Shown in pieces: positions 4,410 to 55,514 of a DNA stretch of 64,000 nt (its first letter is position 1; the number at the start of each line of letters is the position of its first letter). Below the pieces are notes generated by a model that worked only from the letters and a program-made list of their open reading frames with translations, made no database searches and was not told the DNA's origin. A program made the translations under genes and the position numbers. The stretch spans positions 6,868 to 70,867 of the forward strand of contig CAJXJI010000001.1 of NCBI GenBank assembly GCA_913054235.1, written 5' to 3'. The DNA is from an uncultured bacterium. Its GTDB lineage: Bacteria; Patescibacteriota; Minisyncoccia; Minisyncoccales; UBA10102.

Positions 4410-6149
4410 TTATGAGAAACGCAGAGTTTCTCCAGGTTTAAGTTCACCTTTTTGGATATTTTTTTCAGATTGCCTCTCTTGCAGGGCCGCTCCCAAAACT
4501 TCTTTTAATCCTTGCTTGTCTACCTCTTTTTTCTTTTGATTTTGTCCTTCTTGCTTCTTTTTTGAAGGATGAAACATTACAGGTTCCTTATCCATTGCTT
4601 CCTTTAAGGAGGATTGCTGTTGTTTCTGCGCTTGAGGTTCTTCTTTTACCTGAGGTTGTTCTTTTTTTGAACCTTGCTCTGCCTGTTCCTTTTGCTGCTG
4701 AAGCTTTTTTCTACATGCCTTACAGTAGACTTTACGCTTTCCGTCTGGGAGAAATACCACTTTAGTGTCCTTACCACAATTATCACACCTGGCGTCATAC
4801 AGTTCTTGCTGAGGAGCTTGCGGCTTTGATTCTGGTACTTTTTTTTGTGGTGCCCCACTATCAGCCTGTGTCCATGTTGTAATCTCCTCTTCCACCTCTC
4901 CACGCGCCGTTGCGTACCGCTCTCTACTCATACGGATAATCTCTGCTTCATTGGATTCTTCAGGAGAAGCAAAAGGCAACACCAAGGGAGGCAGGGTTTG
5001 AGCAGAAAAAGGACGTCCTGCAATACCATCAATCATAAGTTTTGCATAAATACTATACTTCCCTAAATTCACAAAGTCTAAAGCCAAAAACTCTGGGGTA
5101 AATTCCTTTTCTAAAAATTCTGCATCCTCGGCTCCTACACGAAAAGATATAATTGTGCCAACATTTCCAAATACAGCCCCACGAACCCTAGATTCATTCT
5201 CATCTAACTGTGATATGTATTGGTGGCTTAAAATCAAGCAAAGACGATACTTTCTTGCCTCAGATAAAATATTTACAAAAGAATCTGATGCAAAGTTTTG
5301 AAACTCATCAATATACAAAAAGAAATCCTGCCGTTCATTTTCCGGAATATCCACACGTGACATGGCAGCTAACTGAATTTTGGTTATAAGCATTGCACCT
5401 AAAAGACGGGAGTTGTCTTCACCAATACGCCCTTTTGAAAGATTGAGAATCAAGATTTTCTTTTGATCCATAAGCTCTCGCATATTAAAAGAGGATCTCG
5501 TCTGCCCCACAATGTTTCGAATCAAAGGATTGGAAACAAATTGACCCACCTTGTTTTGGATAGCAGCAGTCGCCTCAATCTCGTATCGCTGGGTGTATCT
5601 GGCATATTCTTGCACCCAAAATGCCTTTACCACTGGATCTGAAACCTTATCAATAACTTTTGCCCTGTAATCTGCGTCTACGAGCATTCGGTTAATTCCC
5701 AAAAGCGTAGCTCCCGGATACTCAAGTAGAGCAAGCACTGTATTGTTTAAAATATACTCCATTCTTGCTGACCATACATCGGGCCAAACTTTTTTAAACA
5801 CGGACATTAAACCAGAAGCCATTAAATGACGATGCTCTGGTTCCACATTCTCCATAACATTAAATGCAATGGGATAATCCATATCAGCAGGGTTAAAATA
5901 TACAACATCTTTAATCCGTTCAGTAGGAATATATTGCAATAATTCTTCTGCTGCCTCTCCGTGCGGGTCCACAAACCCTACGCCATTCCCTCCTTGAATA
6001 TCCTGCACCGCCATATTCTTTAACATCTCGGTCTTTCCCATACCAGTCTTTCCCACAACATAAAAATGACGTCTCCGGTCATCTTCTTTTATACCAAAGC
6101 GCCTTTGTGAATCTCGAAAATTAGTAATTCCAAAAAAATTAATATCCAT
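4410..6149 (-). CDS. TraG/VirD4/TraD-like P-loop ATPase (DUF87 / type IV coupling-protein-like) with C-terminal zinc ribbon and K/Q/E-rich tail
   Basis: Walker A VVGKTGMGKTEML; Walker B FLYIDEFQNF; Cys4 ribbon CDNCGK...CKACRKK; low-complexity QQKEQAEQGSKKEQPQVKEE tail. Confidence 0.6.
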   Translation of the reverse strand: MDINFFGITNFRDSQRRFGIKEDDRRRHFYVVGKTGMGKTEMLKNMAVQDIQGGNGVGFVDPHGEAAEELLQYIPTERIKDVVYFNPADMDYPIAFNVMENVEPEHRHLMASGLMSVFKKVWPDVWSARMEYILNNTVLALLEYPGATLLGINRMLVDADYRAKVIDKVSDPVVKAFWVQEYARYTQRYEIEATAAIQNKVGQFVSNPLIRNIVGQTRSSFNMRELMDQKKILILNLSKGRIGEDNSRLLGAMLITKIQLAAMSRVDIPENERQDFFLYIDEFQNFASDSFVNILSEARKYRLCLILSHQYISQLDENESRVRGAVFGNVGTIISFRVGAEDAEFLEKEFTPEFLALDFVNLGKYSIYAKLMIDGIAGRPFSAQTLPPLVLPFASPEESNEAEIIRMSRERYATARGEVEEEITTWTQADSGAPQKKVPESKPQAPQQELYDARCDNCGKDTKVVFLPDGKRKVYCKACRKKLQQQKEQAEQGSKKEQPQVKEEPQAQKQQQSSLKEAMDKEPVMFHPSKKKQEGQNQKKKEVDKQGLKEVLGAALQERQSEKNIQKGELKPGETLRFS

Positions 6150-6152
6150 GTG

Positions 6153-7454
6153 TTACTCCGTGGGAAGCTCAGGGGGAGCTTCTCCTTTCTTTGGACCAAC
6201 TCTCAGAACTGCAGCAGAAGGAGTAGAAATTCTGCCGGGAAAGTGAAAAATAGTAGCCAATTCCTCAACATTCAATACAAATGTGCCTCCTGGGCGCGGG
6301 AAATAAGGAGGGAGACGCAGAATATAGTTTCGAAACAAGCGTCTTTTTTTTACAAACGCTCTTCTCTTGTCCGTAAACCAGGTAAAAATAGTGTACATCT
6401 TAGTTAAGGTTGGTTTCAAAGGACGAAAGTTATTATAGGTTGCAGTTCCAAATTGAGTGAACCAAGTCATGGCAAGAGCCTTTGCTGGGCTAAAATAATT
6501 TTCTCTCTTTGCAATATACATAAATCTACAATGAGCTCCAAAGGAATACTTACTGATTTTCTCTTCAATCGCAGAAACAATATCTCGCTCTCCGGGAGTT
6601 AATCTCATTTCAGGAGGAATAATCTCTTGTGGAGCTTGTTCTTTGTTGCCATTTTGTTTAACTCCCATGGCAACATGTGTCCCCACAGCTTTTATATCCC
6701 CAAGTAATCCTGGATTTTTAAGAGGAGGAGGACGTTTTACAATCTCAGCTACAATCTCTCTTCCCTCTTGGACCATTGTACTCTCATTTGGACTGGTATG
6801 TAAAATTGGAGTTAAAACAAATTGAATCCAAAGGTTTTCCCCTTTTCCAATTCGAGACAAGCCCTCAATCAAAAGAGCCATGGGATTAATTCTCATTTCT
6901 TCTTTATCAGTAACGTTTGGCTCAAAAAACTTGCTATACGTCTTTATGGGATACGGGCTGGGACGTTCTAAAATATAGTTCGTACCCCATAAATCCCACT
7001 CTTTATTAGGAATGTCTTGTGGGATAAGTTTCGTGTAATCCTCCACCACCACAAATTCTGCTGTAGGATAATGAGAATAAACGGCAGATTCCACCAGTTT
7101 TTGCGCTCCTTCTGGAATACGAAAATAGAAATGGATATTTCCTTCTGTAGAAACTATTTCCAAGGAAAAGGAAAGTTGGAATTTTCCATCAAGCCATGCT
7201 TCTCTTTGGTTTGGAGGATCATGCATTTGCCATAGACCAATAAACACGTCCTCCATTGCCTTAAACGGCCGAGGAGCATCCTCTGGCATTTTAATCTCCA
7301 GGAGAATATAACGTTGCTGTGCAGAAAAAATTTCCTTGCGCCACCAAACCCACAAAAACACCACTGGTTTCCATAAAAGAAATGGGAGAAACAGCCACCA
7401 CCATGTAATAGCTACTTGCCAGATGAATCCCAAAAAGAGGAGAAGTTCTTGCAT
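6153..7454 (-). CDS. Hypothetical membrane protein, N-terminal Trp-rich TM segments
   Basis: 433-aa ORF, N-terminus WQVAITWWWLFLPFLLWKPVVFLWVWW; no recognisable catalytic motif; packed with neighbours. Confidence 0.5.
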   Translation of the reverse strand: MQELLLFLGFIWQVAITWWWLFLPFLLWKPVVFLWVWWRKEIFSAQQRYILLEIKMPEDAPRPFKAMEDVFIGLWQMHDPPNQREAWLDGKFQLSFSLEIVSTEGNIHFYFRIPEGAQKLVESAVYSHYPTAEFVVVEDYTKLIPQDIPNKEWDLWGTNYILERPSPYPIKTYSKFFEPNVTDKEEMRINPMALLIEGLSRIGKGENLWIQFVLTPILHTSPNESTMVQEGREIVAEIVKRPPPLKNPGLLGDIKAVGTHVAMGVKQNGNKEQAPQEIIPPEMRLTPGERDIVSAIEEKISKYSFGAHCRFMYIAKRENYFSPAKALAMTWFTQFGTATYNNFRPLKPTLTKMYTIFTWFTDKRRAFVKKRRLFRNYILRLPPYFPRPGGTFVLNVEELATIFHFPGRISTPSAAVLRVGPKKGEAPPELPTE

Positions 7455-11453: not shown

Positions 11454-11772
11454 TTATAAAATTAAGGAATCAACTTCTTTGAGTGTATGGTCAAGGAGAG
11501 TATCTTGGTCTTGAAAGAAAAATCGCCCATGCAAGGTTTTTCCTTCAAGAAACAATGGAAGCCAATACCTATCATCTGGCCACATGTGATCAAAAGGAAG
11601 TTCTTTTTGAGAAAACCACTGTGGTTTCATTTCTTCTGTTTCTTGTATCTTACCTTCAAAAGAAGAGATATAGAATACATGGACTTCAAGATATTCAAAA
11701 TTATCTTTAAAATGAAACTCGAAAAGTGCTTTCTTTTCAAAATAAACTAACTCTTATGAGATGATGAACCAA
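11454..11772 (-). pseudogene. 5'-truncated Nudix/MutT-like hydrolase remnant
   Basis: Open frame LVHHLIRELVYFEKKALFEFHFKDNFEYLEVHVFYISSFEGKIQETEEMKPQWFSQKELPFDHMWPDDRYWLPLFLEGKTLHGRFFFQDQDTLLDHTLKEVDSLIL. It aligns with the MutT region C-terminal to the Nudix box (xRELxEE then FSLFEKLEYEF...W...). The GX5EX7REUXEEXGU box would fall inside the secA 3' end, which is impossible, and the only in-frame Met leaves 58 aa. Coordinates approximate. Confidence 0.35.
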
Positions 11773-14200
11773 TTAACCCGCATCGTTTCCATTTGAGGCC
11801 ACTACCACAAGGACAAGGATCATTTCTTCCAACTTCTTTGTGTTGTGAGTTCTGTTGAACTTGCCTTGGCACGTGTTTGTGTTTATGCTCATGAACCTCA
11901 GAAACATTCAGCAAAGCATTTGCAATCGTACCTTCTAGATTATCCATAAAAGACTGAAACATTTTTCTCCCCTCATTCTTATATTCAATTAAAGGGTCTT
12001 GCTGGCCATATGCTCTCAAGCGTACAGAATCTCTTAAAGATTCCATATTTTCCAAATGCTCAACCCACAAAGAATCCAACACACGCAAAACAACAATCTT
12101 TTCTGCTTGGCGCATATTCTCCTCTCCCAATTCCTTTTCTTTTTCCACATATTGTTCCCTGCTTTTCCCCATCTTCTCCACAACTTTCTCAACATACTCT
12201 TTTAAAGTTCCTTTTTGCCCCATCTCTAAAAATTCCTCTCTTTTTCGATATACAGCCTCTCGATGCTTATTTAATACATCGTCATACTCAAGTAAGTGTT
12301 TTCTTGCATCAAAGTTAAACCCCTCAATCTTGCTTTGAGCTGATTCTATGGTTCCCGATATCATCTTGGATTCAATAGCTTCCTCTTTTGGCAAACGAAG
12401 CTTCTCCATCATTTTTTGAATACGCTCTCCTCCAAAAATACGAATAAGATCATCTTCCAAGGAAACAAAAAATTGGGTAGATCCTGGGTCTCCTTGGCGA
12501 CCCGAGCGTCCTCTCAACTGATTATCAATTCTTCGCGCTTCATGACGCTCACTGCCAATAACATGGAGCCCTCCCACGTTTTTAACTTCTTTTGCTTCCT
12601 TTGCGTCCAATGGATTCCCTCCCAAAACAATATCTACTCCGCGGCCCGCCATGTTTGTTGCAATGGTCACAGCTCCTTTTCTTCCGGCTTGTGCAATAAT
12701 AGCAGCTTCTCTCTCATGATTTTTTGCATTGAGCATTTCATGCGTAACTCCTTGTCGCTCCAAAAGTTTACCTAAGTATTCATTCTTTTGAATGGAGCCT
12801 GTACCAACAAGCACGGGCTGTCCTTTTTCTTGTCGCTCTTTTATCTCCTCTATAATTGCATTGAACTTTGCTTCTTGTGATTGATATACTTTATCCGGCA
12901 TATCTTCTCGCATCATTGGCTTGTTGGTAGGAACAGGGATCACTTCAATACCATATACTCGAGAAAACTCTTCTGCTGAGGTCAGCGCAGTTCCTGTCAT
13001 TCCAGCTAGCTTTTTATACATGCGAAAATAGTTCTGAAAAGTAATGGAGGCTAGCGTGACAGATTCTGGCTGCACCTGAACATTTTCCTTTGCTTCCAAG
13101 GCTTGATGTAATCCACCAGAATACCTTCTTCCAGGAAGTAGTCTTCCGGTGAATTCATCTACAATAACAACATTTCCATCCCGAACCACATAATCTTTAT
13201 CCCGCTCAAATATAATTTCTGCTTTTAAAGCTTGCTCCAGGTGGTGCAGAAACTTAATTCCTCGCTCCTGATAAATATCCTTAACTCCCATTAACCGCTC
13301 TATTTTGTTAATGCCGTCTTCCGTTAGGGTTACTGCTTTTAATTTTTCGTCTAACTCATAATCCTCTTCTTTTTTAAGCTGTGGAATGAGCCCTGCAAAC
13401 TCTTTGTACCAAGAAGAGCTTTCCTGGTCTGGCGCAGAAATAATCAATGGAGTTCTTGCTTCGTCAACTAAAACTGAGTCTACTTCATCAATAATGGCAT
13501 AGTTATGGCCTCGCTGAACTCTTCCCTCCAGTACTTGAGCCATATTATCTCGTAAATAATCAAAGCCAAACTCATTATTGGTGCCATAGGTAATATCCGC
13601 AAGATACGCCTCCTTGCGCGTAACAGGGCGAAGATAGGCTTCCTCTACCTGAAAGGAGCCCAGGGTATCTCGCTCCTCGTCCTTGTCCTCCTCTTTTGCA
13701 AAAGAAGGGTCATATATATAGGAAGCGTCGTGGATAATACAAGAAACAGACAAGCCTAAAGCATAATAAATCTGACCCATCCACACAGCATCTCTCTTTG
13801 CCAAATAGTCGTTTACCGTAATAACATGCACGCCTTTTCCTTCAAGAGCATTAAGATACACAGGAAGCGTTGCACAAAGCGTCTTTCCTTCTCCAGTCTT
13901 CATCTCAGCAATCTTCCCTTCATGTAAAACCATGCCCCCTAAAAGCTGTACATCAAAATGACGCTGTTCAAGGGTGCGCCTGGCTACCTCTCTTACATAC
14001 GCAAAAGCCTCAGGAAGAATATCCTCCAAGCTATCTCCCTTTGCGAGACGTTCTTTAAACTCCTTGGTCTCTTTTGTAAAATCCTCATCTGTAAGCTCTT
14101 TTGCCTCTTTTTCAAGCTCATTGATTTCTTTTGTCTGAGGACCAAGTTTCGCTATATATTTTTCACTATCTCCTTTAAAAAATTTATCAAGAATCTTCAT
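11747..14200 (-). CDS. secA: Preprotein translocase ATPase SecA
   Basis: 817 aa; DEAD-like motor motifs including EMKTGEGKT and DEVDSVLVDEARTPLIIS; C-terminal zinc finger CPCGSGLKWKRC. Confidence 0.95.
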   Translation of the reverse strand: MKILDKFFKGDSEKYIAKLGPQTKEINELEKEAKELTDEDFTKETKEFKERLAKGDSLEDILPEAFAYVREVARRTLEQRHFDVQLLGGMVLHEGKIAEMKTGEGKTLCATLPVYLNALEGKGVHVITVNDYLAKRDAVWMGQIYYALGLSVSCIIHDASYIYDPSFAKEEDKDEERDTLGSFQVEEAYLRPVTRKEAYLADITYGTNNEFGFDYLRDNMAQVLEGRVQRGHNYAIIDEVDSVLVDEARTPLIISAPDQESSSWYKEFAGLIPQLKKEEDYELDEKLKAVTLTEDGINKIERLMGVKDIYQERGIKFLHHLEQALKAEIIFERDKDYVVRDGNVVIVDEFTGRLLPGRRYSGGLHQALEAKENVQVQPESVTLASITFQNYFRMYKKLAGMTGTALTSAEEFSRVYGIEVIPVPTNKPMMREDMPDKVYQSQEAKFNAIIEEIKERQEKGQPVLVGTGSIQKNEYLGKLLERQGVTHEMLNAKNHEREAAIIAQAGRKGAVTIATNMAGRGVDIVLGGNPLDAKEAKEVKNVGGLHVIGSERHEARRIDNQLRGRSGRQGDPGSTQFFVSLEDDLIRIFGGERIQKMMEKLRLPKEEAIESKMISGTIESAQSKIEGFNFDARKHLLEYDDVLNKHREAVYRKREEFLEMGQKGTLKEYVEKVVEKMGKSREQYVEKEKELGEENMRQAEKIVVLRVLDSLWVEHLENMESLRDSVRLRAYGQQDPLIEYKNEGRKMFQSFMDNLEGTIANALLNVSEVHEHKHKHVPRQVQQNSQHKEVGRNDPCPCGSGLKWKRCGLIGSSSHKS

Positions 14201-14251
14201 ACTAGCTATTATTGCTTAAAATAGAGCGTTTGTAAAAAAAGGAGTCGTTAG

Positions 14252-15121
14252 CTATTTTGCCAAGAAATCTTTTATATACCTTGGTAAAACAGCTGAAGCG
14301 GCAGCAATGTCTGGGAACCAATATTTCAAATTCATTTTTTTTGCCTTCTTAAATTTACTTTTTAAAGCACTATAAGATACATTTAAAAAATCAGAATCTG
14401 AAGCCATAGTAAAGGTAAACAATCCCTCTTGATACGATGGAACTACTGCAGCGCGAACACTCACAAAGCGAAAGATACTTTCCAATCGCTTTTTAATAAG
14501 TGCTACAAGCTTTGGTTGGCAACTTAAGGAACCTGACTGCACGGAAATAATCCCCCCCTTCTTAAGAATCTTTTTTACATCGTAATAAAACTTCTTTGAG
14601 ATAAGGTCTTGTGCTGGTCCTCCAGGATCTGAAAGATCCATGATAATAATATCAAACAATCCCTTATATTCTTGAACAAATTTCTTCCCATCTTCAATAA
14701 CAAGATGGGTTCTTTTATCATAAAACGCATTCTTTGATATAGAAGGAAGGTATTTTCTTGCAATATCAATCGCTTTTTTATCTATCTCAACCATCCAAAC
14801 TTCCCTTACTGATGTATGCTTTAATACTTCCTCTAGTGCGCCTCCATCAGCTCCACCAATAATCAAAACACTCTTGGGAGAAGAATGCAGGAATAAAGGT
14901 GCCTGGCAAAGCATTTCATGGTAAATAAACTCATCCTTTGGTGTTGTTTGTAAAATGCCATCTAAAAATAATGCTCTTCCATAAAACTCCAAGTCAAGCA
15001 CATCAATTTCCTGATATGCAGATTTCCCGGAATACAGTTTCTTTTTTACCTCATACCCAATCACCACCTTTGTTTCATCAAAAGGAACTTCGTCTACAAA
15101 TACAATATTGCGTTTCTTCAT
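14252..15121 (-). CDS. Aminopropyltransferase (spermidine synthase family), paralog 2
   Basis: SAYQEIDVL...LFLDGILQTTPKDEFIYHEML...VLIIGGADGGALEEVLKH...VEID...DLSDP: full SpeE signature. Confidence 0.85.
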   Translation of the reverse strand: MKKRNIVFVDEVPFDETKVVIGYEVKKKLYSGKSAYQEIDVLDLEFYGRALFLDGILQTTPKDEFIYHEMLCQAPLFLHSSPKSVLIIGGADGGALEEVLKHTSVREVWMVEIDKKAIDIARKYLPSISKNAFYDKRTHLVIEDGKKFVQEYKGLFDIIIMDLSDPGGPAQDLISKKFYYDVKKILKKGGIISVQSGSLSCQPKLVALIKKRLESIFRFVSVRAAVVPSYQEGLFTFTMASDSDFLNVSYSALKSKFKKAKKMNLKYWFPDIAAASAVLPRYIKDFLAK

Positions 15122-15122
15122 A

Positions 15123-15971
15123 CTATTTTTTAACCAAGCTTAGTATCTCAAACAAAGCTCTTGTAGTTAAAAACTCTGTTATCTGGTTTCCCTTTATGGG
15201 TTTTAAGCAACAAACATCAAAACCTACAATATTGCCTGCTATAGCATGCATTAAATTCTTAAATTGAGAAAAGTATATTCCGTCTGGCTCTGGCTGATGT
15301 ACTGCTGGCGCAATACTTGGATCAAAAACATCTACATCAAGAGTAATGTACACATCTTCGTTTTGCGTAAATTCTTCAATAACCTTACTTACTGCTTCCT
15401 TATTTTCCTGGATATCCTGTGCGCTAACATATGTAATGCCACTCTCTTCAATAAACTTCAATTCTTTTGCATCACATGATCTCACTCCTACTAAAAGAAT
15501 GTTCTTTGGATCTATGATTTCGCTTAATCTTCTAAGCCATGTTGCTCCATTTACCCTTGCATCAAACTCGCCATTCCATGAAGTACTTAGGTCCACAATA
15601 TTATCGTCTTCATACTCATCTTTTAAATCACAGTGGGCATCAAAACTTATCACTTTAATATCCTTTTTAAAAGCTGGGATAGTAAAGAGCGATGGATGGT
15701 CCCCCGCAATCGCAACCGGTATTTTATTATTCTCTACAATGAGGCGAGTATACTTTGTGATATCTTCATTGTTTTTAGGCTTTAAATCCCCGGCATCTAC
15801 AACTCGCACGCCTTCAAGTAATTCCTTTTTACTTTCAATATCAAAATCCTCCATGTACACAGGAGTTTGACGCAGTGCCTTTGCGCCATCAGAAAATCGC
15901 TTTCCGATAGGCACGCCAAAGAAAACAACATTTGCTTCTTTAAAACTATACGGTGAATTCAAAAACTTCAT
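15123..15971 (-). CDS. speB: Agmatinase-family ureohydrolase (SpeB-like; possibly N1-aminopropylagmatine ureohydrolase)
   Basis: Arginase-family Mn ligand motifs AGDHPS, DAHCDL and ITLDVDVFDPSIAP. Confidence 0.8.
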   Translation of the reverse strand: MKFLNSPYSFKEANVVFFGVPIGKRFSDGAKALRQTPVYMEDFDIESKKELLEGVRVVDAGDLKPKNNEDITKYTRLIVENNKIPVAIAGDHPSLFTIPAFKKDIKVISFDAHCDLKDEYEDDNIVDLSTSWNGEFDARVNGATWLRRLSEIIDPKNILLVGVRSCDAKELKFIEESGITYVSAQDIQENKEAVSKVIEEFTQNEDVYITLDVDVFDPSIAPAVHQPEPDGIYFSQFKNLMHAIAGNIVGFDVCCLKPIKGNQITEFLTTRALFEILSLVKK

Positions 15972-15989
15972 AGAAAATTAAAAGGAACT

Positions 15990-16853
15990 TTACTTAAAGG
16001 AAGGAGGGAAAACACTTGAGGCAAGATGCATTGCTGGAGAATAGTATAAGGTAGAAATCTTTCTTTGCTTATATCTTTTTTCAAGAACAGTTTTTGTTAT
16101 ATTTTTAAGATTCACTTTTAAAGATGCAACAGGAAAAGAATGCTCATCTCGAGGAAAGCTCCCAACAAAAGCGCGGTGTAATTCATAGAAAGGAAATACT
16201 TTTTTCATAACAATTCGTGCTTTCATTCCAAAGGTATCAGAAATATATCCGGTCTGCGCAGAAAAAATGCCGTCTTTGGTAAGAGCATTTTTGACAGCAC
16301 GCAAAAACTTCTCTTCAAAAAGTTTTGCTGCCATGATTCCATCTGGATCGTTGGAATCAAGAATTATACAATCAAAATAGTTTTTATACTTCAAAATAAA
16401 CTCGATTCCATCAGTTACCACAATCTTACTTCTCTTATCTTGAAAAGCTGAACGACATAATGTGGGAAGATATTTTTTTGCAACCTGAATCACTTTCTCA
16501 TCAATCTCAACTAAAAACGCTTCTTTTACAGGGTGCTTTAGTACTTCACGTAACGCTCCTCCATCTCCACCACCAATAATGAGGACTCGCTTAGGAGAAG
16601 GATGGTTCATTAATGCAGGGTGCACCAGCATTTCATGGTACACAGCTTCGTCTTTTGTGGAAAGCTGCACTAATCCATCAAGAAAAAACATTCTGCCATA
16701 CCCCTGCGTGTCAAAAATATCTATACTTTGATACTTACTCTTTCCCGTATATATCTTTTTTTTTATTGCAAAACCTGCAAGAAATACTTCTTTTTCTCCA
16801 GGAAGACATCCTTCAATCGCCCAGGTCTTTTTTAGAATTGAAATCTTTCTCAT
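15990..16853 (-). CDS. speE: Aminopropyltransferase (spermidine synthase), paralog 1
   Basis: SKYQSIDIF...FFLDGLVQLSTKDEAVYHEML...VLIIGGGDGGALREVLKH...VEIDEKV...DSNDP. Confidence 0.88.
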   Translation of the reverse strand: MRKISILKKTWAIEGCLPGEKEVFLAGFAIKKKIYTGKSKYQSIDIFDTQGYGRMFFLDGLVQLSTKDEAVYHEMLVHPALMNHPSPKRVLIIGGGDGGALREVLKHPVKEAFLVEIDEKVIQVAKKYLPTLCRSAFQDKRSKIVVTDGIEFILKYKNYFDCIILDSNDPDGIMAAKLFEEKFLRAVKNALTKDGIFSAQTGYISDTFGMKARIVMKKVFPFYELHRAFVGSFPRDEHSFPVASLKVNLKNITKTVLEKRYKQRKISTLYYSPAMHLASSVFPPSFK

Positions 16854-17266
16854 GTTGTATTGTCTTCTACCACACCTCTTTTTATTTCCTTTACATCCAT
16901 TTTCTTTGGCTCCAAGTAATCCTCAAAAAACTTCAATGCTTTTTGGGGTCGAGCTTTTTTTCCACACGTAAAGATATCTATTGCAATGTATCCTATTTCA
17001 GGCCATGTATGCACAGCAATATGGGACTCTGCAAGCAAAATAACCCCAGTAATACCACGAGGTTTAAACTTATAAATAGAAAGTTGTAATGGATTGCTAT
17101 TTGCAGCCTTTGCGGCGCCTCGCAAAAGTGTCTCTAGTTCTTTTTTGTTTTTAATAACTTTACCATTCCAAAAGTCGGCTACCATGTGGGTGCCTGCATA
17201 CGCAAACTTGGGAACTATTGTATTGATAGAATTGGTCCATTGCGGAACCCTCTTTGTGTGCTGCAT
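16850..17266 (-). CDS. speH: S-adenosylmethionine decarboxylase proenzyme (pyruvoyl-dependent, SpeH/SpeD type)
   Basis: LLAESHIAVHTWPE self-cleavage/active-site motif (E-S processing site); 138 aa. Confidence 0.85.
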   Translation of the reverse strand: MQHTKRVPQWTNSINTIVPKFAYAGTHMVADFWNGKVIKNKKELETLLRGAAKAANSNPLQLSIYKFKPRGITGVILLAESHIAVHTWPEIGYIAIDIFTCGKKARPQKALKFFEDYLEPKKMDVKEIKRGVVEDNTT

Positions 17267-17460
17267 AGAGCATATGTATTCAATCGCTTACCCGGCACAA
17301 TTACCAGGCCCCAACACAAGACATGTCCTGCGTGAGTGCCCTCTGACGAGGGCAATCTTTCCTGTCTTAAACAGAAAAGAAAAAAGAGGAAAAAAGCGAT
17401 TAAAGATTAATTATTACTTCAAAAGTATCTTAGCACATATTGTCAACATGCGCAAGGGTT

Positions 17461-17488
17461 AAAAAGCCCGCCCCAGAGTTGGGGCGGG
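17461..17488 (-). terminator. Rho-independent terminator after the lysine-rich small ORF
   Basis: Minus strand: CCCGCCCC-aactct-GGGGCGGG followed by TTTTT (plus aaaaagcccgccccagagttggggcggg). Confidence 0.6.
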
Positions 17489-17501
17489 AAGAAATTGGAG
17501 A

Positions 17502-17615
17502 CTACCTCTTTTTCTTTCTTTTTGCTGCTTTCTTCTTCTTTGGAGCAGCTTTCTTTTTCTTTGGGGCTGCTTTCTTTTTAGGAGCAGCTTTCTTTCTTTT
17601 TTTCTTTGCTGGCAT
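17502..17615 (-). CDS. 37-aa lysine-rich basic protein with KKAAPKKK repeats (histone H1/Hc-like tail)
   Basis: Minus-strand ORF MPAKKKRKKAAPKKKAAPKKKKAAPKKKKAAKRKKKR, stop TAG, then the strong terminator. The predicted plus-strand ORF here (17440..17880) is an implausible poly-Phe/Ala antisense product. Confidence 0.4.
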   Translation of the reverse strand: MPAKKKRKKAAPKKKAAPKKKKAAPKKKKAAKRKKKR

Positions 17616-17756
17616 AGTATGTATCAAATATTTTAAAGTCTACTTAGGATGGCTCGACTTTTTAATTGTACCATCACAACGCTATTACTTTATTTTTCCA
17701 TTCCAAACGCATACTGTCAACCCTTTTTTACATATTTTTCCACACGAACAAAAAAA

Positions 17757-18695
17757 TCATTCAACAAATTGTATTTCTTGTTCCAAATTAATAGAAAATT
17801 TCTTTTTAATAATATTTTTTACCTTTTTTGCAATATGTAATACATCTTTTGCTGTTGCTCCTCCCTTGTTTACTATATAGTTTGGATGTTTCTTTGATAC
17901 TTGTGCTTTCCCCACACGTAATCCTTTTAATTTTGCTTGTGAAATTAAATATGCGGTTGGTACAACAGGAAAAGGATCTACTTTTATTACATCTTGAAGT
18001 TCCTCCTGGAGTTTTTTTGAAAACTTTTTGACATCACAATTCTTAAACACACTTCCGGCGTTAGGATACTCTAGAGGATGGCGCTCCTTTCTATATTCTC
18101 TATGATCTTTTGCTGTGGCTTGAATAATTCTCTTGTTTCCCTTTTCTAATTTAAAAATACAAGAAAGTACAATTAAATTATTTTTCTTAATTAAAGAATC
18201 TCGATAAGAAAACTTACATTGCTTTTGAATAAGCGTTACTATATTCCCTTTTGCATTTAACACTCTAATTGAAACAATACTGTCTTTAATTTCTCCACCA
18301 AAGGCTCCTGCATTTCCTCGCACAGCTCCTCCAACAGAACCTGGTAAACCACCTGCCCACTGAAGCCCGCTTAATCCTTTTGAACCTGTTTTTTTAACCA
18401 ACGTTTCCATAGATACTCCAGCATCAGCATGCACGTTAGTCTTTGATATTGTATATGCAGTATTTTGCACTTTAATAACTAATCCATTAAATCCTTTGTC
18501 TGAAACAAGTACATTGCTTCCTCCTGCCAAAACAAAAAACGGTAGCTTTAAACTCTTAGCTTGAGCTACCGCGTCAACAATATCTTTTGTGGATCGGGCG
18601 ATATAAAAGTACTTTGCTGTCCCGCCGATCTTAAAGGTGGTATATGGAGCAAGAGAAACATTTCTTCTTGTTCCTAAAGGAAGTGCTATATCCAT
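17757..18695 (-). CDS. murB: UDP-N-acetylenolpyruvoylglucosamine reductase MurB
   Basis: NVSLAPYTTFKIGGTAKYFY...LAGGSNVLVSD (FAD-binding PCMH domain); C-terminal MurB domain. Start set at an internal Met (MDIALP...); the track start is 18725. Confidence 0.85.
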   Translation of the reverse strand: MDIALPLGTRRNVSLAPYTTFKIGGTAKYFYIARSTKDIVDAVAQAKSLKLPFFVLAGGSNVLVSDKGFNGLVIKVQNTAYTISKTNVHADAGVSMETLVKKTGSKGLSGLQWAGGLPGSVGGAVRGNAGAFGGEIKDSIVSIRVLNAKGNIVTLIQKQCKFSYRDSLIKKNNLIVLSCIFKLEKGNKRIIQATAKDHREYRKERHPLEYPNAGSVFKNCDVKKFSKKLQEELQDVIKVDPFPVVPTAYLISQAKLKGLRVGKAQVSKKHPNYIVNKGGATAKDVLHIAKKVKNIIKKKFSINLEQEIQFVE

Positions 18696-22052: not shown

Positions 22053-25000
22053 TTAGTAACTGTAGGTAGGTCCTGTTGCGGCAGAACCGTAGCTATCGGT
22101 TTCTGTCTTATAGGTAGCAGCACCGGAAGTGTTTAGTGGGGTGTAATCCCAGCTAAATCCTTCAACCTGTGCTGTTGTAACCTGGTTTGGTCCTTTGGCT
22201 CCAGGAATTCTGATTCCAAAGCTTGCCGATACTGAAGTTACGAGACCTGAACTATCTTCTGCTCGCTTCACGTTTGACGTGTCAGCTTTCACTACCAATG
22301 TCATTGTTTGGCCTGCAGTTACTGTCTGCTCGGCCAAAGCCGTTACAGCAGAACGTGCATCAAATACAACAGTACCAGAACCTCTAGTAAGGTTGTAGAT
22401 GTCAGCCGGCTCAGTGCCAGCCACAGCAGCTGCGTTGGTGGAAATTCCAGATATTGCTACCTGGGTTACAGTAACTGTGTTTGCTCCAATAGAAGCAACT
22501 GTTGCTGTACCACTATCTGCAGCAGTACCCGCTATAACGTAGAGCTGATCACCAACCTGATACTTTGAAGCATCTGCAACGTCATAAGTCAAACCACTAT
22601 TTGCAGTGGCGCCATCAACGTCAGATACCGTGTACACAATGTAGGTGTCATCAGTTGCTATGGTGCCATCTACAACATCGGCTGCCATAACCATAACTGT
22701 AGAACTCGTAATACTGGCCACTGTGGTTGTTCCAGAGTTCGCTTCTGTACTTAAATCAATATAAAGGACAGAGTCACCAACTAGGAATCCAGCTGTACCA
22801 GCAACAGTAGCAGTAGCTGTACTACCTGAAGTAGCTGTAGTTCTGGTGTTTGTTGCAAGACCTGATACTTCAGCGATTATAGTATCGCCATTAAACAACT
22901 TAAAGTCTTTTACATTCCAGTCTGCGCTACTACCAAGCTTCTCTACTACCAAGCTTCTAAACGTCATGTCTCGGCTTCCAGAAGCTTTAATGCTAATGGT
23001 TCCAACAACCTGATCAAGGGCAGGTGATGCAACTCCTCCTGTTGGAAGAGAGTCACTTCCTGTGACAGTAAGCACTGGTTGCACCTCTTCATACCTCATG
23101 GTGTTACCCGTAAGGCTATTGGTGTTCGTGATCTTAGTAACATGGTCTCCAGCTGCTGCGATTGCAATTGAACCAGCAGGGCTAAAGGCAAGGCCTGAAA
23201 TTGCACTACCTGAAGCCACAGCCGTGGTCACGATTGCAAATCCTGCCTCGTTATCATCAGAGTCATATACATACACCAGATCACCTACGGCGTAAGCTAC
23301 CCCAGCGTTTGCATTTCCAAGAATGGCCTCTACCTTAGAAAGCTTGGTGATAATATCACCTGCTGCCCAAGAAGTGTCAGTTGCTTCTCCTTCAAGATCC
23401 AGGTCAGCTGATGCCAAGTTCACTGAATCATCATCCGTAGTTACCAATGCAAATCCTGGAGCTGTGGTTGTTCCAGCATCAGCTGTTACAGTCCAGTATA
23501 CAACGTCACCCACGTCTCCAGAGTAAGCATCCGTACCTGCGGTATACGCAGTTCCAGATGAAAGGGACTCTTGCGTGGTCAAACCAGAGCCTGATCCAAT
23601 TACATCAGCAGCGCTAAATCCGAGAACTCCAAGGTTTGATGCGGTCAACGTTCCAACTACCGTAGTATCCACAACTGCGGTTATTACTCGGGAACCATAT
23701 GAAGGAACAATGATCTCATTTCCTGAGCCAAAGGTAAACGTTGCAGTTCCTGCTGTGAGAGCTGTTGAAGGGTCGCTTGAAAGACCCGTGCCAAGCAACT
23801 TCACATTTGCAATGTTTCCTGCTCCATTCAATGTTCGCAGTACAAGCCTTTCTACCTTCATGTCTTCTACTGTTGCAGACAACTTAATTCTTGCCATTTC
23901 AATTCCGGTTAAACCAGGGGTCAAGAATCGGCTGGAAGCAGCTCCGGTAGAATCCATAGCAACTGTTACAGTTCCTGATTCAACAATAGTCAAAGTTCTT
24001 GCTGTCACAGTCGCTGAAGGACCCGTAATGGATGATCCAGATGTTGCACCAACTCCCGTAACATCAGCTGCATTCAGAGAAGCAATGTATGTGTCATTGG
24101 TACCTCCATCAGAAGCTGCGGTGTTTGCGCTTGCATACACATCAACCTGCACTGTCGTGGAAGCTAGAATATTCAGCTCTCCTGAGACAGTAAAGGTGTT
24201 GTTGGTAGCAGTAGGGGAGGCAATAGTGCTTCCCATCTGTGCTCCAGTGCTTGTCAGCTTTACCTTCATGTTGGTCAAACCAGTTGCAACCGCAACATCA
24301 CCTGCAGTAAGATCTACTACGATAGTAGAGATGTTTACTCCTTCAGAAGAGTTAGTTTGCATCAAGAAAGAACCAATAAGAAGCTCTGACTGACCCTCAA
24401 TCACAGTAGCAGCACCTATAGAAGCATTGTTCACAACCGTCAAGGTTGCGGTAGATGCTGTTAAGGTGTTAGTTGAGATATGAGCGTTTGCGTCAGACGC
24501 AGTTCCATAGGTGTTGGATGTCATTCTCTTATAGTACACTCGTCCTAGTCCACCAATGATGGTTTCTGCATCATCGATGCCGGTTCCAGCGTCAACCACA
24601 ACTTTTACCTTAAGTACGGTTCCAGCTGGAATAGTGTAGTACGTAGAAAATGTTACTTGGTCACCACTGTCATTTGCAGCGTTATCATCATCAAACAAAT
24701 CATCTGCTCCAGCTGACTGACTGTGAAGAGTTTGTCCTGCGTCAGTCATGAACTTAATTGTTCCAGAAAAGTCTCCATCGTCAGAGCTTCCACCAAGCTC
24801 ATAGTCAGCTCGCTGAATCTGAATATCTTCACCCTGAGCCTGAAGTTCCCAGACACCAACAACAATGTTGGCCTGTCCGATACCAAAGGTTCCTGAAGGT
24901 GAGCTACCTGACTTGTTCACGGTCAAAGTTCCCTGACTCACAGTCAAGAGGTTGTATCCTGAATTTCCAGTGGTGATGTCACCAATAGGAATTGCGGAGT

Positions 25001-26402
25001 CAACTGTTCCTGCGGCTGTTGGCAAAATACCAAGGCCAGTAGATACTCCGACTACCTGAAGATCGTAATCGTTTTGAATGATAACCTGTCCAGTTCTGTT
25101 AGAACCAGAGATTACATCAACTCGAACGGTTAAATCTTTTGTTGTTCCTTTCAAAATCGTGTAAGGCTCGGAGAGAATAAACTCAACCGACTTGCTGGTT
25201 GCTCCAGCAACCGTTGCCAACACAACTCCGTTAGGATCAACCAAATCAAAGTTTACGAGATCAGCATCAGCTGCAGTTCCATTCTGGAACAATGTCAATC
25301 TGTTAATCTTCGCGTCTTCGTTTCCAGTTGTCTCAACAAAGCGGAACTTGCTCAAAACATAATCAGTTCGTCCAATATCCACACTTACTGAGGTTGAGGT
25401 CTGTGAGACCACATCTATAGTTACTGCTCCCAAAATGCTTGAGGTGGCAGTAAGAGTCTGAAGGTTTCCATTTATAGGAAGACCTGTTGGGTCACCGTTT
25501 ATGCCAGTTACGTTAAATCCAATAGTTCCTGCAGTTGCTGCAGAGTTTACGTGCACTTGCACATTAAACGTGGTAGAGCCTCCTGCTGAGGCCACAATAG
25601 GATCTCCAGTAAATGGAATAGTTACTTTGCCATCAGCTAAAGTAACAACACTTCCGTGTCGATTACCGTTTGCGTCAACGATTAATACTCCGTCAACATT
25701 CGTGTCAATGGAAAGACCAAATCTCTCCACAGTAACAGATGTGACAGAAGCTCCACTTGCTCCTCCATTTACTTGCACCTGAACTACGGTGTTGTAAGCA
25801 GAAGATGCTCCCAATGTTCCAGCTGCTGGGTTGTTAAATCCAACTTGTACGCTGGAAGGACCGGTTGTTGGAGCTGGGGTTGGAGTACCAGGCGTTGGGC
25901 TTGGCGTTGGTGATGCTACAAACAATGCATTGATCTTTGCTCTTGAGGAAGAACCAAAGAATCCGGTTCCAGCACTCAATCCCAAAGGCTCCAATACATT
26001 TGCAGCATACTTGTCCTGAAATTTAATAACTCCGCTTCGGGTAATTGGCCCAAAGAAAGTTGTTTCATTTCCAGGAGAGCCAGCTCCAGAGTCTGCCAAT
26101 TTCGTGGCAGGGTCGGAGTTCAAGAACATCTGGAGGTACATTACGTCCTGTCCCTTAGATCCTACCGTAAGACTTGTGTCCCAGGTAAAACCAGCAGGAA
26201 TGCCAGAAACGCTTACCGTTCCAGTGTCTCCTCCGTCTATGTCTGTTAATTGCGCTTGCAATGTTGCCAATTGCGCCATAAGAGCGTCAATCTGTACCTG
26301 CAATTCAGCTGCGGTTAACGCAGAAGCTGGTGCAGGAACAGCTACGATCCCAAGCATAGCAACAACAGTTACAACGGCAAATATTTTCTTAAATCTACTC
26401 AT
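22053..26402 (-). CDS. Giant (1449 aa) secreted Thr/Ser/Gly/Ala/Val-rich surface protein: N-terminal coiled-coil plus PG-binding-like anchor, then tandem beta-rich domains (putative S-layer/adhesin)
   Basis: Signal peptide MSRFKKIFAVVTVVAMLGIVAVPAPASA. Coiled coil LQVQIDALMAQLATLQAQL. PG_binding_1-like domain GQDVMYLQMFLNSD...FFGPITRSGVIKFQDKYAANVLEP...GFFGSSSRAKIN. Recurring modules of the form ...R(F/L)..V.K..R..F..(L/V)...G......V.F.L.D.NG.V.A.V.G. The coding GC is much higher than the genome background. Confidence 0.75.
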   Translation of the reverse strand: MSRFKKIFAVVTVVAMLGIVAVPAPASALTAAELQVQIDALMAQLATLQAQLTDIDGGDTGTVSVSGIPAGFTWDTSLTVGSKGQDVMYLQMFLNSDPATKLADSGAGSPGNETTFFGPITRSGVIKFQDKYAANVLEPLGLSAGTGFFGSSSRAKINALFVASPTPSPTPGTPTPAPTTGPSSVQVGFNNPAAGTLGASSAYNTVVQVQVNGGASGASVTSVTVERFGLSIDTNVDGVLIVDANGNRHGSVVTLADGKVTIPFTGDPIVASAGGSTTFNVQVHVNSAATAGTIGFNVTGINGDPTGLPINGNLQTLTATSSILGAVTIDVVSQTSTSVSVDIGRTDYVLSKFRFVETTGNEDAKINRLTLFQNGTAADADLVNFDLVDPNGVVLATVAGATSKSVEFILSEPYTILKGTTKDLTVRVDVISGSNRTGQVIIQNDYDLQVVGVSTGLGILPTAAGTVDSAIPIGDITTGNSGYNLLTVSQGTLTVNKSGSSPSGTFGIGQANIVVGVWELQAQGEDIQIQRADYELGGSSDDGDFSGTIKFMTDAGQTLHSQSAGADDLFDDDNAANDSGDQVTFSTYYTIPAGTVLKVKVVVDAGTGIDDAETIIGGLGRVYYKRMTSNTYGTASDANAHISTNTLTASTATLTVVNNASIGAATVIEGQSELLIGSFLMQTNSSEGVNISTIVVDLTAGDVAVATGLTNMKVKLTSTGAQMGSTIASPTATNNTFTVSGELNILASTTVQVDVYASANTAASDGGTNDTYIASLNAADVTGVGATSGSSITGPSATVTARTLTIVESGTVTVAMDSTGAASSRFLTPGLTGIEMARIKLSATVEDMKVERLVLRTLNGAGNIANVKLLGTGLSSDPSTALTAGTATFTFGSGNEIIVPSYGSRVITAVVDTTVVGTLTASNLGVLGFSAADVIGSGSGLTTQESLSSGTAYTAGTDAYSGDVGDVVYWTVTADAGTTTAPGFALVTTDDDSVNLASADLDLEGEATDTSWAAGDIITKLSKVEAILGNANAGVAYAVGDLVYVYDSDDNEAGFAIVTTAVASGSAISGLAFSPAGSIAIAAAGDHVTKITNTNSLTGNTMRYEEVQPVLTVTGSDSLPTGGVASPALDQVVGTISIKASGSRDMTFRSLVVEKLGSSADWNVKDFKLFNGDTIIAEVSGLATNTRTTATSGSTATATVAGTAGFLVGDSVLYIDLSTEANSGTTTVASITSSTVMVMAADVVDGTIATDDTYIVYTVSDVDGATANSGLTYDVADASKYQVGDQLYVIAGTAADSGTATVASIGANTVTVTQVAISGISTNAAAVAGTEPADIYNLTRGSGTVVFDARSAVTALAEQTVTAGQTMTLVVKADTSNVKRAEDSSGLVTSVSASFGIRIPGAKGPNQVTTAQVEGFSWDYTPLNTSGAATYKTETDSYGSAATGPTYSY

Positions 26403-54320: not shown

Positions 54321-55514
54321 TTACAGTGAAAACTTTGGTATTTTACCTGCAAACATAAATCCTAAAGATAATACTGCTGCACCAAAGAAAATACCATTAA
54401 TTGGCAGTAAAGGAAAGACCCAAAACACTAAGGCTGCCAACCCTAAAAATATAAAACGCGTAACATTTATAATGATCTCTCTGTTTACAATGAACTCATC
54501 GGCTTCCTCTCCCTTTTCCGCTGCCTTTTCATAGAAAAAGGTTTGAAAAGGAACTGCAGCAGCAGATCTTGAAAGACGATACAGCGTATGGGCAAGAAAG
54601 GCATCAAAGGTGGTAGCAATGAAATATTTAATAATCCAAGAAATACTCGTCCACAAGGCCCCTACATTTAAAAGCCAAGGGCGCTCTGTTGTATCTGAAA
54701 CTTTACCGATATACAGCATAAACAAAGAAGAAATAACCAAGGAAAAAGACGCAATGGCCCCCATAGATTCAAATGTAACCGCAAGAGAAAACAAAAATAA
54801 CGGCCAAAATATAGAAACAACTATTACCTCAAGGCCATTTGAAATAAAAGCAATACTTGTTTTAATGTTTTCTTTTTTCCATGCTCGTTTCCACGCCCCT
54901 TTATATGAATCGATATATACCTCATGAGTTTCTTTAGCGTACAGTAATGGAATAATAGAAGTGAGCAATACCACAAGTACCACTGCAAACAGCACAGGAT
55001 ATCCAAACAGCACGAGTATCCATCCTCCAAGAATAGGGCTTACAATCATGGGTAAAAGGCGCATCACATTAAGTTTCCCTACATCTTTTCCTCTGCTTTC
55101 TTTTGAAGAAAAACGGGCAAAGTCAGTATGAAATGCAGGCCAGAACAAAAGTAATCCAAAAATAATAAGCAGAACAGAAAGAGGAACAAACCAAAAAGAA
55201 ACGGGGAACAAAAACAAAGAAAGAAAATATCCAAAGTAGAAAAACAAGCTTACAAGAATGGATTTAGTAGGTCCTATCCTTGCCATTATCCTGCCTCCAA
55301 AAGGAGCGAGTACTCCATACGCTCCATATATGATGGCAAAGAATACAAGGGTAAGGGGTAAAGATTTATCAAAATACAAATAAAGATATATTGGCTCAAA
55401 CAATACCACCATACCTAAAGCCAGATTGCGAATGGACATTGCAATATAAAACTTGCTCACGTCTCTCTTTAAAAGATAGTCAAAATAGTGATGTGGGTTT
55501 AAAGAAAGAATCAT
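54321..55514 (-). CDS. MFS-family transporter
   Basis: About 12 predicted TM helices; GRIMARIGP-like MFS loop motif. Confidence 0.7.
   Translation of the reverse strand: MILSLNPHHYFDYLLKRDVSKFYIAMSIRNLALGMVVLFEPIYLYLYFDKSLPLTLVFFAIIYGAYGVLAPFGGRIMARIGPTKSILVSLFFYFGYFLSLFLFPVSFWFVPLSVLLIIFGLLLFWPAFHTDFARFSSKESRGKDVGKLNVMRLLPMIVSPILGGWILVLFGYPVLFAVVLVVLLTSIIPLLYAKETHEVYIDSYKGAWKRAWKKENIKTSIAFISNGLEVIVVSIFWPLFLFSLAVTFESMGAIASFSLVISSLFMLYIGKVSDTTERPWLLNVGALWTSISWIIKYFIATTFDAFLAHTLYRLSRSAAAVPFQTFFYEKAAEKGEEADEFIVNREIIINVTRFIFLGLAALVFWVFPLLPINGIFFGAAVLSLGFMFAGKIPKFSL

Follow-up and report, generated by a model that had tools for sequence, protein, structure and literature searches.

A polyamine operon was found in a 64-kb stretch of Patescibacteria DNA (the window, to which the searches for further genes of this organism were confined), and in this operon a gene for an arginase-fold ureohydrolase lies between two aminopropyltransferase (APT) genes, speE-A and speE-B. 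Judged by its sequence, the ureohydrolase is a noncanonical, archaeal-type variant with a rebuilt active site. In the pathway that we favor, and to which we give about an even chance, SpeE-A (the more likely of the two APTs) would make N1-aminopropylagmatine, the ureohydrolase would convert it to spermidine, and the other APT would extend spermidine to a tetraamine. The outline of the operon is ordinary, and S-adenosylmethionine decarboxylase (AdoMetDC), paired APTs, and an agmatine-based route are all of known kinds. What goes beyond them is the ureohydrolase with its rebuilt site and apparent archaeal origin, the swapping of modules at one chromosomal site, and an undescribed leader RNA.

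Four tightly packed open reading frames (ORFs), all intact and all on the minus strand, occupied positions 14252 to 17266 between murB and secA. In order of transcription, a structured leader RNA is followed by speH, also called speD (17266..16850; 138 amino acids [aa]; PF02675 and TIGR03330), speE-A (16853..15990; 287 aa; PF01564 and PF17284), the ureohydrolase gene (15971..15123; 282 aa; PF00491), speE-B (15121..14252; 289 aa; PF01564 and PF17284), and then secA (14200..11747, minus strand; an ORF of 817 aa). The speH and speE-A genes overlap by a few bases, 18 bp separate speE-A from the ureohydrolase gene, and the stop codon of the latter abuts the start codon of speE-B. The ORFs and their Pfam and equivalog matches agreed with an earlier note on this DNA, which had described a polyamine operon of four genes here. 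The same note had placed the operon directly behind secA, but the operon is transcriptionally upstream of secA, with a gap of 51 bp between speE-B and secA. No terminator-like site was found in this gap, a weak promoter-like site was present at 14236-14208, and secA may be cotranscribed with the polyamine operon by read-through.

The ureohydrolase matched PF00491 with 159 bits and the agmatinase equivalog TIGR01230 with 129.2 bits, which is under the cutoff of 174.3; its best solved relative, 3PZL, scored just 84 bits. When it was aligned with Escherichia coli SpeB taken from the K-12 genome (26% identity), all six ligands of the binuclear metal (Mn) site were seen to be kept (H92, D111, H113, D115, D212, and D214, equivalent to E. 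coli H126, D149, H151, D153, D230, and D232). In contrast to the canonical enzyme, the proton-shuttle His163 is replaced by Gly142 and the guanidinium-orienting Glu274 by Cys255, and about 20 residues are inserted after the DAHCD motif, in the loop that ends at the His163 equivalent. In E. coli SpeB, the E274A substitution leaves 1-2% activity and H163F leaves 3-5%, and the loop ending at His163, loop A, has been linked to agmatine affinity (PMC8125230). Because the protein failed the TIGR01230 cutoff and lacks equivalents of Glu274 and His163, it stands apart from the canonical agmatinases, in keeping with the earlier note. Its fold remains that of an arginase: the AlphaFold model (mean predicted local distance difference test score, 95.9) found 3PZL as its best PDB match (template modeling [TM] score, 0.82; 24% identity), with TM scores of about 0.8 to 3PZL, 1WOG, and 7LOL. 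The fold search was also considered as a guide to the substrate and was set aside, since agmatinase, guanidinobutyrase, guanidinopropionase, proclavaminate amidinohydrolase, and metformin hydrolase all scored about 0.8 and were not discriminated.

The insertion and both substitutions co-occurred in about 75 of 255 homologues surveyed, and 154 of the 255 had the His, the Glu, and no insertion. Among the approximately 75 variants, the His position was mostly Asp or Gly and the Glu position held Cys in most and Leu, Ala, Gly, or Val in some; this variation across the clade argues against the Cys having become a new nucleophile. The close homologues formed a discrete clade (at least 35% identity and 160 to 590 bits), separated by a gap from ordinary agmatinases at 118 bits or less, and the six metal ligands together with many other positions were invariant within it. 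A HMMER search of 1.84 billion representative sequences returned 10,614 arginase-family proteins, just 178 of them at E <= 1e-30. Related enzymes are known to prefer longer substrates: the efficiency of Bacillus subtilis SpeB on a long guanidino-polyamine is about 330-fold that on agmatine, and the SpeY-associated ureohydrolases act on a guanidino-polyamine and not on agmatine (PMC13625781). For N1-aminopropylagmatine ureohydrolase, adjacency to two speE genes was present here; no sequence signature defines that activity.

The first gene of the operon encodes a protein that carries every hallmark of a genuine AdoMetDC and so can supply the aminopropyl donor. SpeH matched PF02675 with 119 bits and the AdoMetDC equivalog TIGR03330 with 128.4 bits (cutoff, 75.65), and it has the features of a class 1b pyruvoyl proenzyme with an N-terminal extension of about 23 residues. 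Its whole core aligned with solved AdoMetDCs, the best being Aquifex 2III and Thermotoga maritima 1TLU. In the segment LLAESHIAVHTWPE...DIFTCG, the cleavage Ser, the catalytic His, and the Cys (T. maritima S63, H68, and C83) are all retained, as is the Pro of the HTWPE motif. This Pro is fully conserved in genuine AdoMetDCs and not in SpeD-derived arginine decarboxylases, and a Gln/Thr/Phe/Tyr signature, which SpeH lacks, marks the SpeD-derived ornithine decarboxylases (Li et al. 2023, PMC10407285). SpeH is thus identified as a genuine AdoMetDC of predicted activity, and the pyruvoyl AdoMetDC of the earlier note stands.

Pfam scans of large ORFs, which reached to about 58 kb of the window and did not take in three further ones at 58-63 kb, detected no ornithine decarboxylase (ODC) or arginine decarboxylase (ADC) of any fold and no pyridoxal phosphate (PLP)-dependent decarboxylase, in agreement with the earlier note, which had found no such gene in the operon; tblastn of the whole window detected no second SpeD-like gene and no deoxyhypusine synthase (DHS) gene. 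The murB-secA site proved to be a conserved home of polyamine genes in related Patescibacteria, with the synteny kept in six further loci (L084, L089, L090, L097, L098, and L219) and the content varying among them. Loci L097 (Wildermuthbacteria) and L098 hold speD and an A-type speE at this site. L090 holds speD, a gene for a 124-aa SpeD homologue with the ODC signature, and a B-type speE, and in L091 that ODC-like gene and a B-type speE stand together at another site. L219 (GCA_027624865.1) holds speD, speE-A, the ureohydrolase gene, a 124-aa SpeD-like gene, and speE-B, with proteins 79-84% identical; L089 has the same set plus a third APT gene after speD. The window and L084, whose ureohydrolase is 92% identical, have speD, speE-A, the ureohydrolase gene, and speE-B. 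At least four Patescibacteria loci have the ureohydrolase gene closely packed between two speE genes. The earlier note had considered such genes unusual for a reduced genome; they are not, because speD-speE modules are common at this site in related Patescibacteria, and their homologues number in the thousands.

The additional SpeD-like gene of L219 (4403-4777) and L089 (9620-9994) lies between the ureohydrolase gene and speE-B. Its 124-aa product scored 55.8 bits against the AdoMetDC cutoff of 75.65, keeps the Ser, His, and Cys, and lacks both the AdoMetDC Pro and the Gln/Thr/Phe/Tyr ODC signature, which is the profile of a SpeD-derived ADC. The ADC-like gene is cleanly absent from L084 and from the window, where the junction is at 15121-15123; the comparison indicates that it was deleted in the lineage of these two, which is therefore left with no operon-encoded source of agmatine. 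The presence of the ADC-like gene in the sister operons and the lack of a PLP-dependent decarboxylase in the scanned ORFs together make the pathway appear built around arginine and agmatine, and an agmatine-based pathway is likely; on this point the sister operons bear out the earlier note. Comparable decarboxylases, SpeDA and SpeDC, have been described from Candidate Phyla Radiation and DPANN organisms, among which horizontal transfer was inferred (PMC10407285), and the loci related to the window likewise hold 124-aa SpeD homologues that either have the SpeDC signature (L090 and L091) or lack the AdoMetDC Pro (L089 and L219). The window differs in having lost the SpeDA-like gene, its one SpeD homologue being a genuine AdoMetDC. 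Separately, several canonical agmatinase genes of Dehalococcoidia and deltaproteobacteria (L010, L040, L054, L068, and L074) were preceded by a short SpeD-like ORF about 130-510 bp upstream; these pairs probably consist of a SpeD-derived ADC and an agmatinase, of the kind known from PMC10407285.

The ureohydrolase gene appears to have come from archaea. Beyond the tight Patescibacteria group, the labeled clade members were archaeal (Aenigmatarchaeota, Nanoarchaeia, and Ca. Terraquivivens), and others stood in archaeal gene contexts. The best genome match of the window protein was encoded by an Aenigmatarchaeota metagenome-assembled genome (60% identical, versus at most 34% for bacterial agmatinases), and in a neighbor-joining tree the Patescibacteria ureohydrolases were sister to the Aenigmatarchaeota sequence and nested among archaeal ones. 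In the Aenigmatarchaeota locus (L081/L001, 6001-8210), the ureohydrolase gene is followed by a DHS gene (NF002294, 458 bits; cutoff, 350) and then, on the opposite strand, by a SpeD-like gene whose product lacks the AdoMetDC Pro and to which the Patescibacteria ADC-like gene gave its best cross-match (39% identity by tblastn). In another clade member, L096 (835-4573), the ureohydrolase gene lies between speE and a gene for an alanine-racemase-fold decarboxylase together with a DHS-like gene. Archaeal agmatinase-like genes are known to cluster with DHS and aIF5A genes, a link whose role is unsettled in the literature (PMC5178350); the nearest archaeal homologue of the window protein likewise adjoins a genuine DHS gene, whereas the window gene belongs to a bacterial speE operon and no DHS gene was found in the window.

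The simplest reading of these comparisons is that the ureohydrolase gene was transferred horizontally from DPANN archaea into this lineage, and the lost decarboxylase probably came from the same source. Several observations tell against such a transfer or fail to strengthen it. The neighbor-joining tree carries no bootstraps, and most clade members bear no taxonomic label. Base composition was tried as evidence of transfer and dropped: the GC content of the operon (0.36-0.39) falls inside the range of the neighboring genes and could not be distinguished from that of murB (0.35), so composition gives a recent transfer no support.

Both APTs have the catalytic and tetramerization domains and exceeded the cutoff of the polyamine aminopropyltransferase family NF002010 (277 bits for SpeE-A and 295 bits for SpeE-B; cutoff, 260). 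The two proteins were 44% identical over 271 residues (E = 8e-70), close to the 45% estimated in the earlier note. That note had also credited both with the GGGDGG and D-x-x-D-P signatures; the catalytic D-x-x-D-P loop is present in both (DSNDP and DLSDP), but GGGDGG, the motif that binds decarboxylated AdoMet, occurs only in SpeE-A, the SpeE-B motif being GGADGG (a Gly-to-Ala change also seen in L089). SpeE-A has distinctive sequence on its substrate side, with DSNDPDG and a divergent C-terminal loop, GSFPRDEHSF; PF01564 covers just profile positions 1-135 of 186, and the score against the spermidine synthase equivalog TIGR00417 (242.6 bits) is slightly under the cutoff of 249.55. Its best PDB matches were T. 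maritima 1INL and Pyrococcus furiosus 1MJF, with Pyrococcus 2E5W also among the closest. The Pyrococcus enzymes 1MJF and 2E5W have a broad substrate range. A loop reading SFP and common to SpeE-A and the Pyrococcus enzymes was hinted at by HMMER and was not relied on, as MAFFT L-INS-i aligned the region otherwise. In both L097 and L098, the sole APT found between murB and secA was an orthologue of SpeE-A (54-59% identity).

SpeE-B is the more canonical, spermidine-synthase-like paralog by its sequence. It has the motifs DLSDPGGP and PSYQEGLFTF, PF01564 covers positions 1-179 of 186, TIGR00417 was matched with 272.2 bits, over the cutoff of 249.55, and its best PDB matches were E. coli 3O4F and B. 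subtilis 1IY9. Furthermore, it was 58-62% identical to the sole SpeE of the L090 and L091 loci, which is partnered there with the SpeD-derived gene carrying the ODC signature. Bit scores against PDB entries were used as a proxy for a phylogeny of the two proteins with characterized APTs. The thermospermine synthase 6BQ2 scored 127 bits with SpeE-A and 150 bits with SpeE-B, and Thermus thermophilus SpeE (1UIR) scored 156 and 143 bits, respectively, while the best spermidine synthases scored 191 (SpeE-A) and 194 (SpeE-B). Neither paralog has the Glu of the thermospermine-type motif 2 (GGGEG, to which there are known exceptions); both have Asp. The suggestion in the earlier note that one paralog might be of the thermospermine type was thus not borne out by the motif or by the scores.

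Roles for the two paralogs were also sought in the motifs of Li et al. (2024, PMC11107197), an approach that was dropped. The bacterial spermine-synthase pattern (Asp in motif 2, Gly at +2, and Glu in motif 3) fits both paralogs, the lone SpeE of L090, and T. maritima SpeE, an enzyme that yielded no tetraamine (PMC11107197), and because it is common to all of these it assigns no roles. In the same study, agmatine was aminopropylated by 17 of the 18 bacterial spermidine synthases, spermidine synthases could not be told by any motif from N1-aminopropylagmatine synthases, and every bacterial APT pair tested consisted of one spermidine/N1-aminopropylagmatine synthase and one spermine/thermospermine synthase. 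Since all tested pairs include a synthase of the latter kind, a tetraamine product is likely here by analogy. The window resembles those pairs in having two SpeE paralogs in one genome, with an identity of 44% inside the reported 33-60% range (Table S1 of that study), and it shares with the spermine-synthase group the Asp in GGxDG of both proteins. It differs in that its host is a Patescibacteria lineage outside the sampling of that study and in that its two genes share one operon, flank a ureohydrolase gene, and have no motif that assigns their roles. The third APT of L089 (6916-7785), which was 52% identical to SpeE-A, suggests longer or additional polyamines in that organism.

In the pathway that we favor, agmatine would be the starting point, either imported or made by the product of a gene outside the window. 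One APT, most likely SpeE-A, would convert agmatine to N1-aminopropylagmatine, the remodeled ureohydrolase would remove urea from this intermediate to give spermidine, and the other APT would convert spermidine to a tetraamine, the spermine type being likelier than the thermospermine type; which paralog takes which step is our inference. This order of reactions is preferred because the active site is not that of an agmatinase, the loop is expanded, and related systems have an affinity for long guanidino-polyamines. The scheme is like the N1-aminopropylagmatine route of T. thermophilus and Thermococcus kodakarensis (SpeA or PdaD, SpeE, and a SpeB-like ureohydrolase; wider bacterial occurrence, PMC11107197) in that genes for an AdoMetDC, an APT, and an arginase-fold ureohydrolase stand side by side, an ADC-type gene occurs in the sister operons, and no ODC gene was found in the window ORFs scanned. 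It departs from that route in several respects: the window has two APTs and L089 has three, compared with the single APT of T. thermophilus (PMC11107197, Table S1); the decarboxylase of the relatives is a SpeD-derived pyruvoyl enzyme that is missing from the window; and the window ureohydrolase falls in a clade of its own and has neither the Glu nor the His of canonical agmatinases.

A number of observations pull away from the agmatine-first scheme. The sequence does not fix whether aminopropylation precedes or follows ureohydrolysis, and the shared SpeE motif pattern leaves the division of labor undefined. Neither an ADC or ODC gene nor a recognizable polyamine transporter gene was found among the ORFs scanned. 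In L089 and L219, the pair of ureohydrolase and SpeD-like genes occupies the slot that the ODC-like gene holds in L090, just upstream of speE-B, an exchange that reads naturally as an ADC and an agmatinase replacing ODC as the putrescine source of SpeE-B; because the B-type enzymes partner the ODC-like gene in L090 and L091, the ancestral substrate of SpeE-B was probably putrescine. In addition, a metagenome variant, L085 (JGI 3300003702, 577-1684), whose aligned blocks were 99-100% identical to L084, had a 109-nucleotide (nt) deletion at the 5' end of speH and 241 nt of speE-A swapped for 162 nt of unrelated sequence. Its speE-A is thus disrupted, with the ureohydrolase gene and speE-B intact; the variant represents either natural pseudogenization or an assembly artifact.

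The strongest alternative is the classical order, in which the ureohydrolase would act as an agmatinase giving putrescine, SpeE-B would make spermidine, and SpeE-A would make spermine or a longer polyamine. The slot shared with the ODC-like gene and the pairing of B-type SpeE with that gene in L090 and L091 fit this order directly, as do the passing of the spermidine synthase cutoff by SpeE-B, its closeness to the E. coli and B. subtilis enzymes, the occurrence of a spermine or thermospermine synthase in every tested bacterial pair, and the retention of the ureohydrolase gene and speE-B in L085, allowing for an artifact of assembly. However, the two residues worth 95-99% of E. coli agmatinase activity are replaced throughout the clade, the protein fails the agmatinase equivalog cutoff, and the enlargement of loop A suggests that the substrate carries a different tail. 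Moreover, an A-type SpeE is the sole APT found at the site in L097 and L098, so SpeE-A is not merely an add-on tetraamine synthase. On balance we regard the classical order as a rather unlikely but serious competitor.

The two APTs could instead work in parallel, each on its own diamine or guanidino-amine (putrescine for one and agmatine, cadaverine, or 1,3-diaminopropane for the other, for instance), giving two triamines and no tetraamine. In favor of this, the broad-range Pyrococcus enzymes are among the closest solved relatives of SpeE-A. The A and B types do each occur alone at this site in related genomes, and norspermidine and other products are among those described for some APTs by Li et al. 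(PMC11107197). Such an arrangement is nevertheless improbable, given that one member made a tetraamine in all pairs tested experimentally and that the three APTs of a single L089 operon are easier to understand as serial extension. That the ureohydrolase stands outside free-polyamine metabolism, being catalytically impaired or having an archaeal function such as the trimming of guanidino groups from a modified protein, as proposed for the archaeal agmatinase-like proteins clustered with DHS and aIF5A, would agree with the loss of both second-shell catalytic residues, the DHS genes beside its archaeal relatives, and the puzzle that such neighborhoods pose in the literature (PMC5178350), but it is very improbable in view of the invariant metal ligands and other positions, the retention of the gene in tight coupling between two speE genes, and the lack of a DHS homologue in the window.

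The operon is preceded by what we propose as a candidate for a previously undescribed cis-regulatory RNA element of polyamine synthesis. Directly before speH, within the 490-bp spacer that separates it from murB, about 130 nt (17406..17277, minus strand) fold into a structured 5' leader. Four hairpins and an unpaired CUUUUUUCCUCUUU tract that does not vary are closed off by a helix, P1 (UUUAAUCGCUU / AAGCGAUUGAA), and the predicted minimum free energy was -61 kcal/mol (z = -6.7 against shuffles). A covariance model, R1, was built from five loci with L219 left out; it matched upstream of speD in six distinct loci, including the independent L219 copy with 124.7 bits, and no copy was found by it in L097 or L091. 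Over the six leader sequences, 92.4% of cells were paired versus 39-52% in slid controls, and compensatory changes were present in 12 pairs versus 5.5 +/- 1.6 in shuffles, none of 500 shuffles reaching 12. Because six related sequences are few, this covariation is suggestive rather than conclusive. A pattern scan of metagenomes for further copies was unproductive: ATCGNTTTTTTCCTC gave at least 120 mostly random matches, none of which fits the covariance model.

The leader probably controls the initiation of speH translation, since the 3' strand of P1 ends about 11 nt before the start codon. No Rfam family (SAM-I, the spermidine riboswitch, speF, and potC included) matched at E <= 1 over 14100-17900, and the whole window at Rfam gathering thresholds yielded nothing but RNase P and one tRNA. 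The sole spermidine riboswitch class with convincing evidence so far, a small one, is a SAM-I variant (PMC10853860). The leader in the window resembles that riboswitch in being a structured element upstream of polyamine biosynthesis genes that include speD, and it differs in having no Rfam match and in its architecture of P1 and four hairpins with a long pyrimidine-rich joining strand. Between murB and the leader, a 37-codon ORF (17615..17502, minus strand) encodes MPAKKKRKKAAPKKKAAPKKKKAAPKKKKAAKRKKKR, a Lys/Ala/Pro-repeat peptide that is extremely basic (61% Lys plus Arg). A promoter-like site of its own and a strong intrinsic terminator (17488-17467, minus strand) accompany this ORF, which is conserved in L084, L089, L090, L098, and L219.

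The host is bacterial: the window has a class A RNase P RNA along with secA, secDF, murB, and ftsZ/ftsA, and for each of the three enzyme types the closest homologues with a name came from Patescibacteria (Wildermuthbacteria, Nealsonbacteria, and Pacebacteria among them). A type IV coupling protein of the TrwB/VirD4 kind, which has a treble-clef zinc finger, is encoded beside secDF (4410-6149, minus strand), and the same gene is present at the equivalent position in L089. The sole transporter-like protein in the scanned ORFs is a major facilitator superfamily protein (54321-55514, minus strand) for which no link to polyamines or agmatine was seen. Two further minus-strand ORFs, one of 1449 aa in a patch of higher GC content (22053-26402; 0.46) and one of 433 aa (6153-7454), had no Pfam match at E <= 0.001, and a long ORF of about 1,275 aa, also without a Pfam match, was present on the far side of murB in L084 and L089.

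A broader and more tentative proposal, which we think unlikely as a whole, is that the loop-expanded ureohydrolases of DPANN archaea and this lineage, lacking the Glu and the His, form a distinct class for long guanidino-polyamines such as N1-aminopropylagmatine, with a rebuilt arrangement for substrate binding and proton transfer, that they were transferred from archaea together with a SpeD-derived ADC, and that the operon is under a new riboswitch class sensing a polyamine or an AdoMet-derived metabolite. Provided that the enzymes are correctly assigned, episymbiotic bacteria with small genomes invest in a multistep polyamine pathway, which has been rebuilt at one site by swaps of modules (an ODC-like gene, an ADC-like gene with a ureohydrolase gene, and one to three APT genes), at least one of which looks to be derived from DPANN archaea of the same habitats. 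In the conserved leader, polyamine synthesis may have a new regulatory RNA, a candidate that can be put to the test. As a natural experiment, the ureohydrolase clade offers a view of how an arginase fold might work when the canonical Glu and His are missing, and it may bear on the archaeal role of the agmatinase-like genes that stand beside deoxyhypusine synthase.

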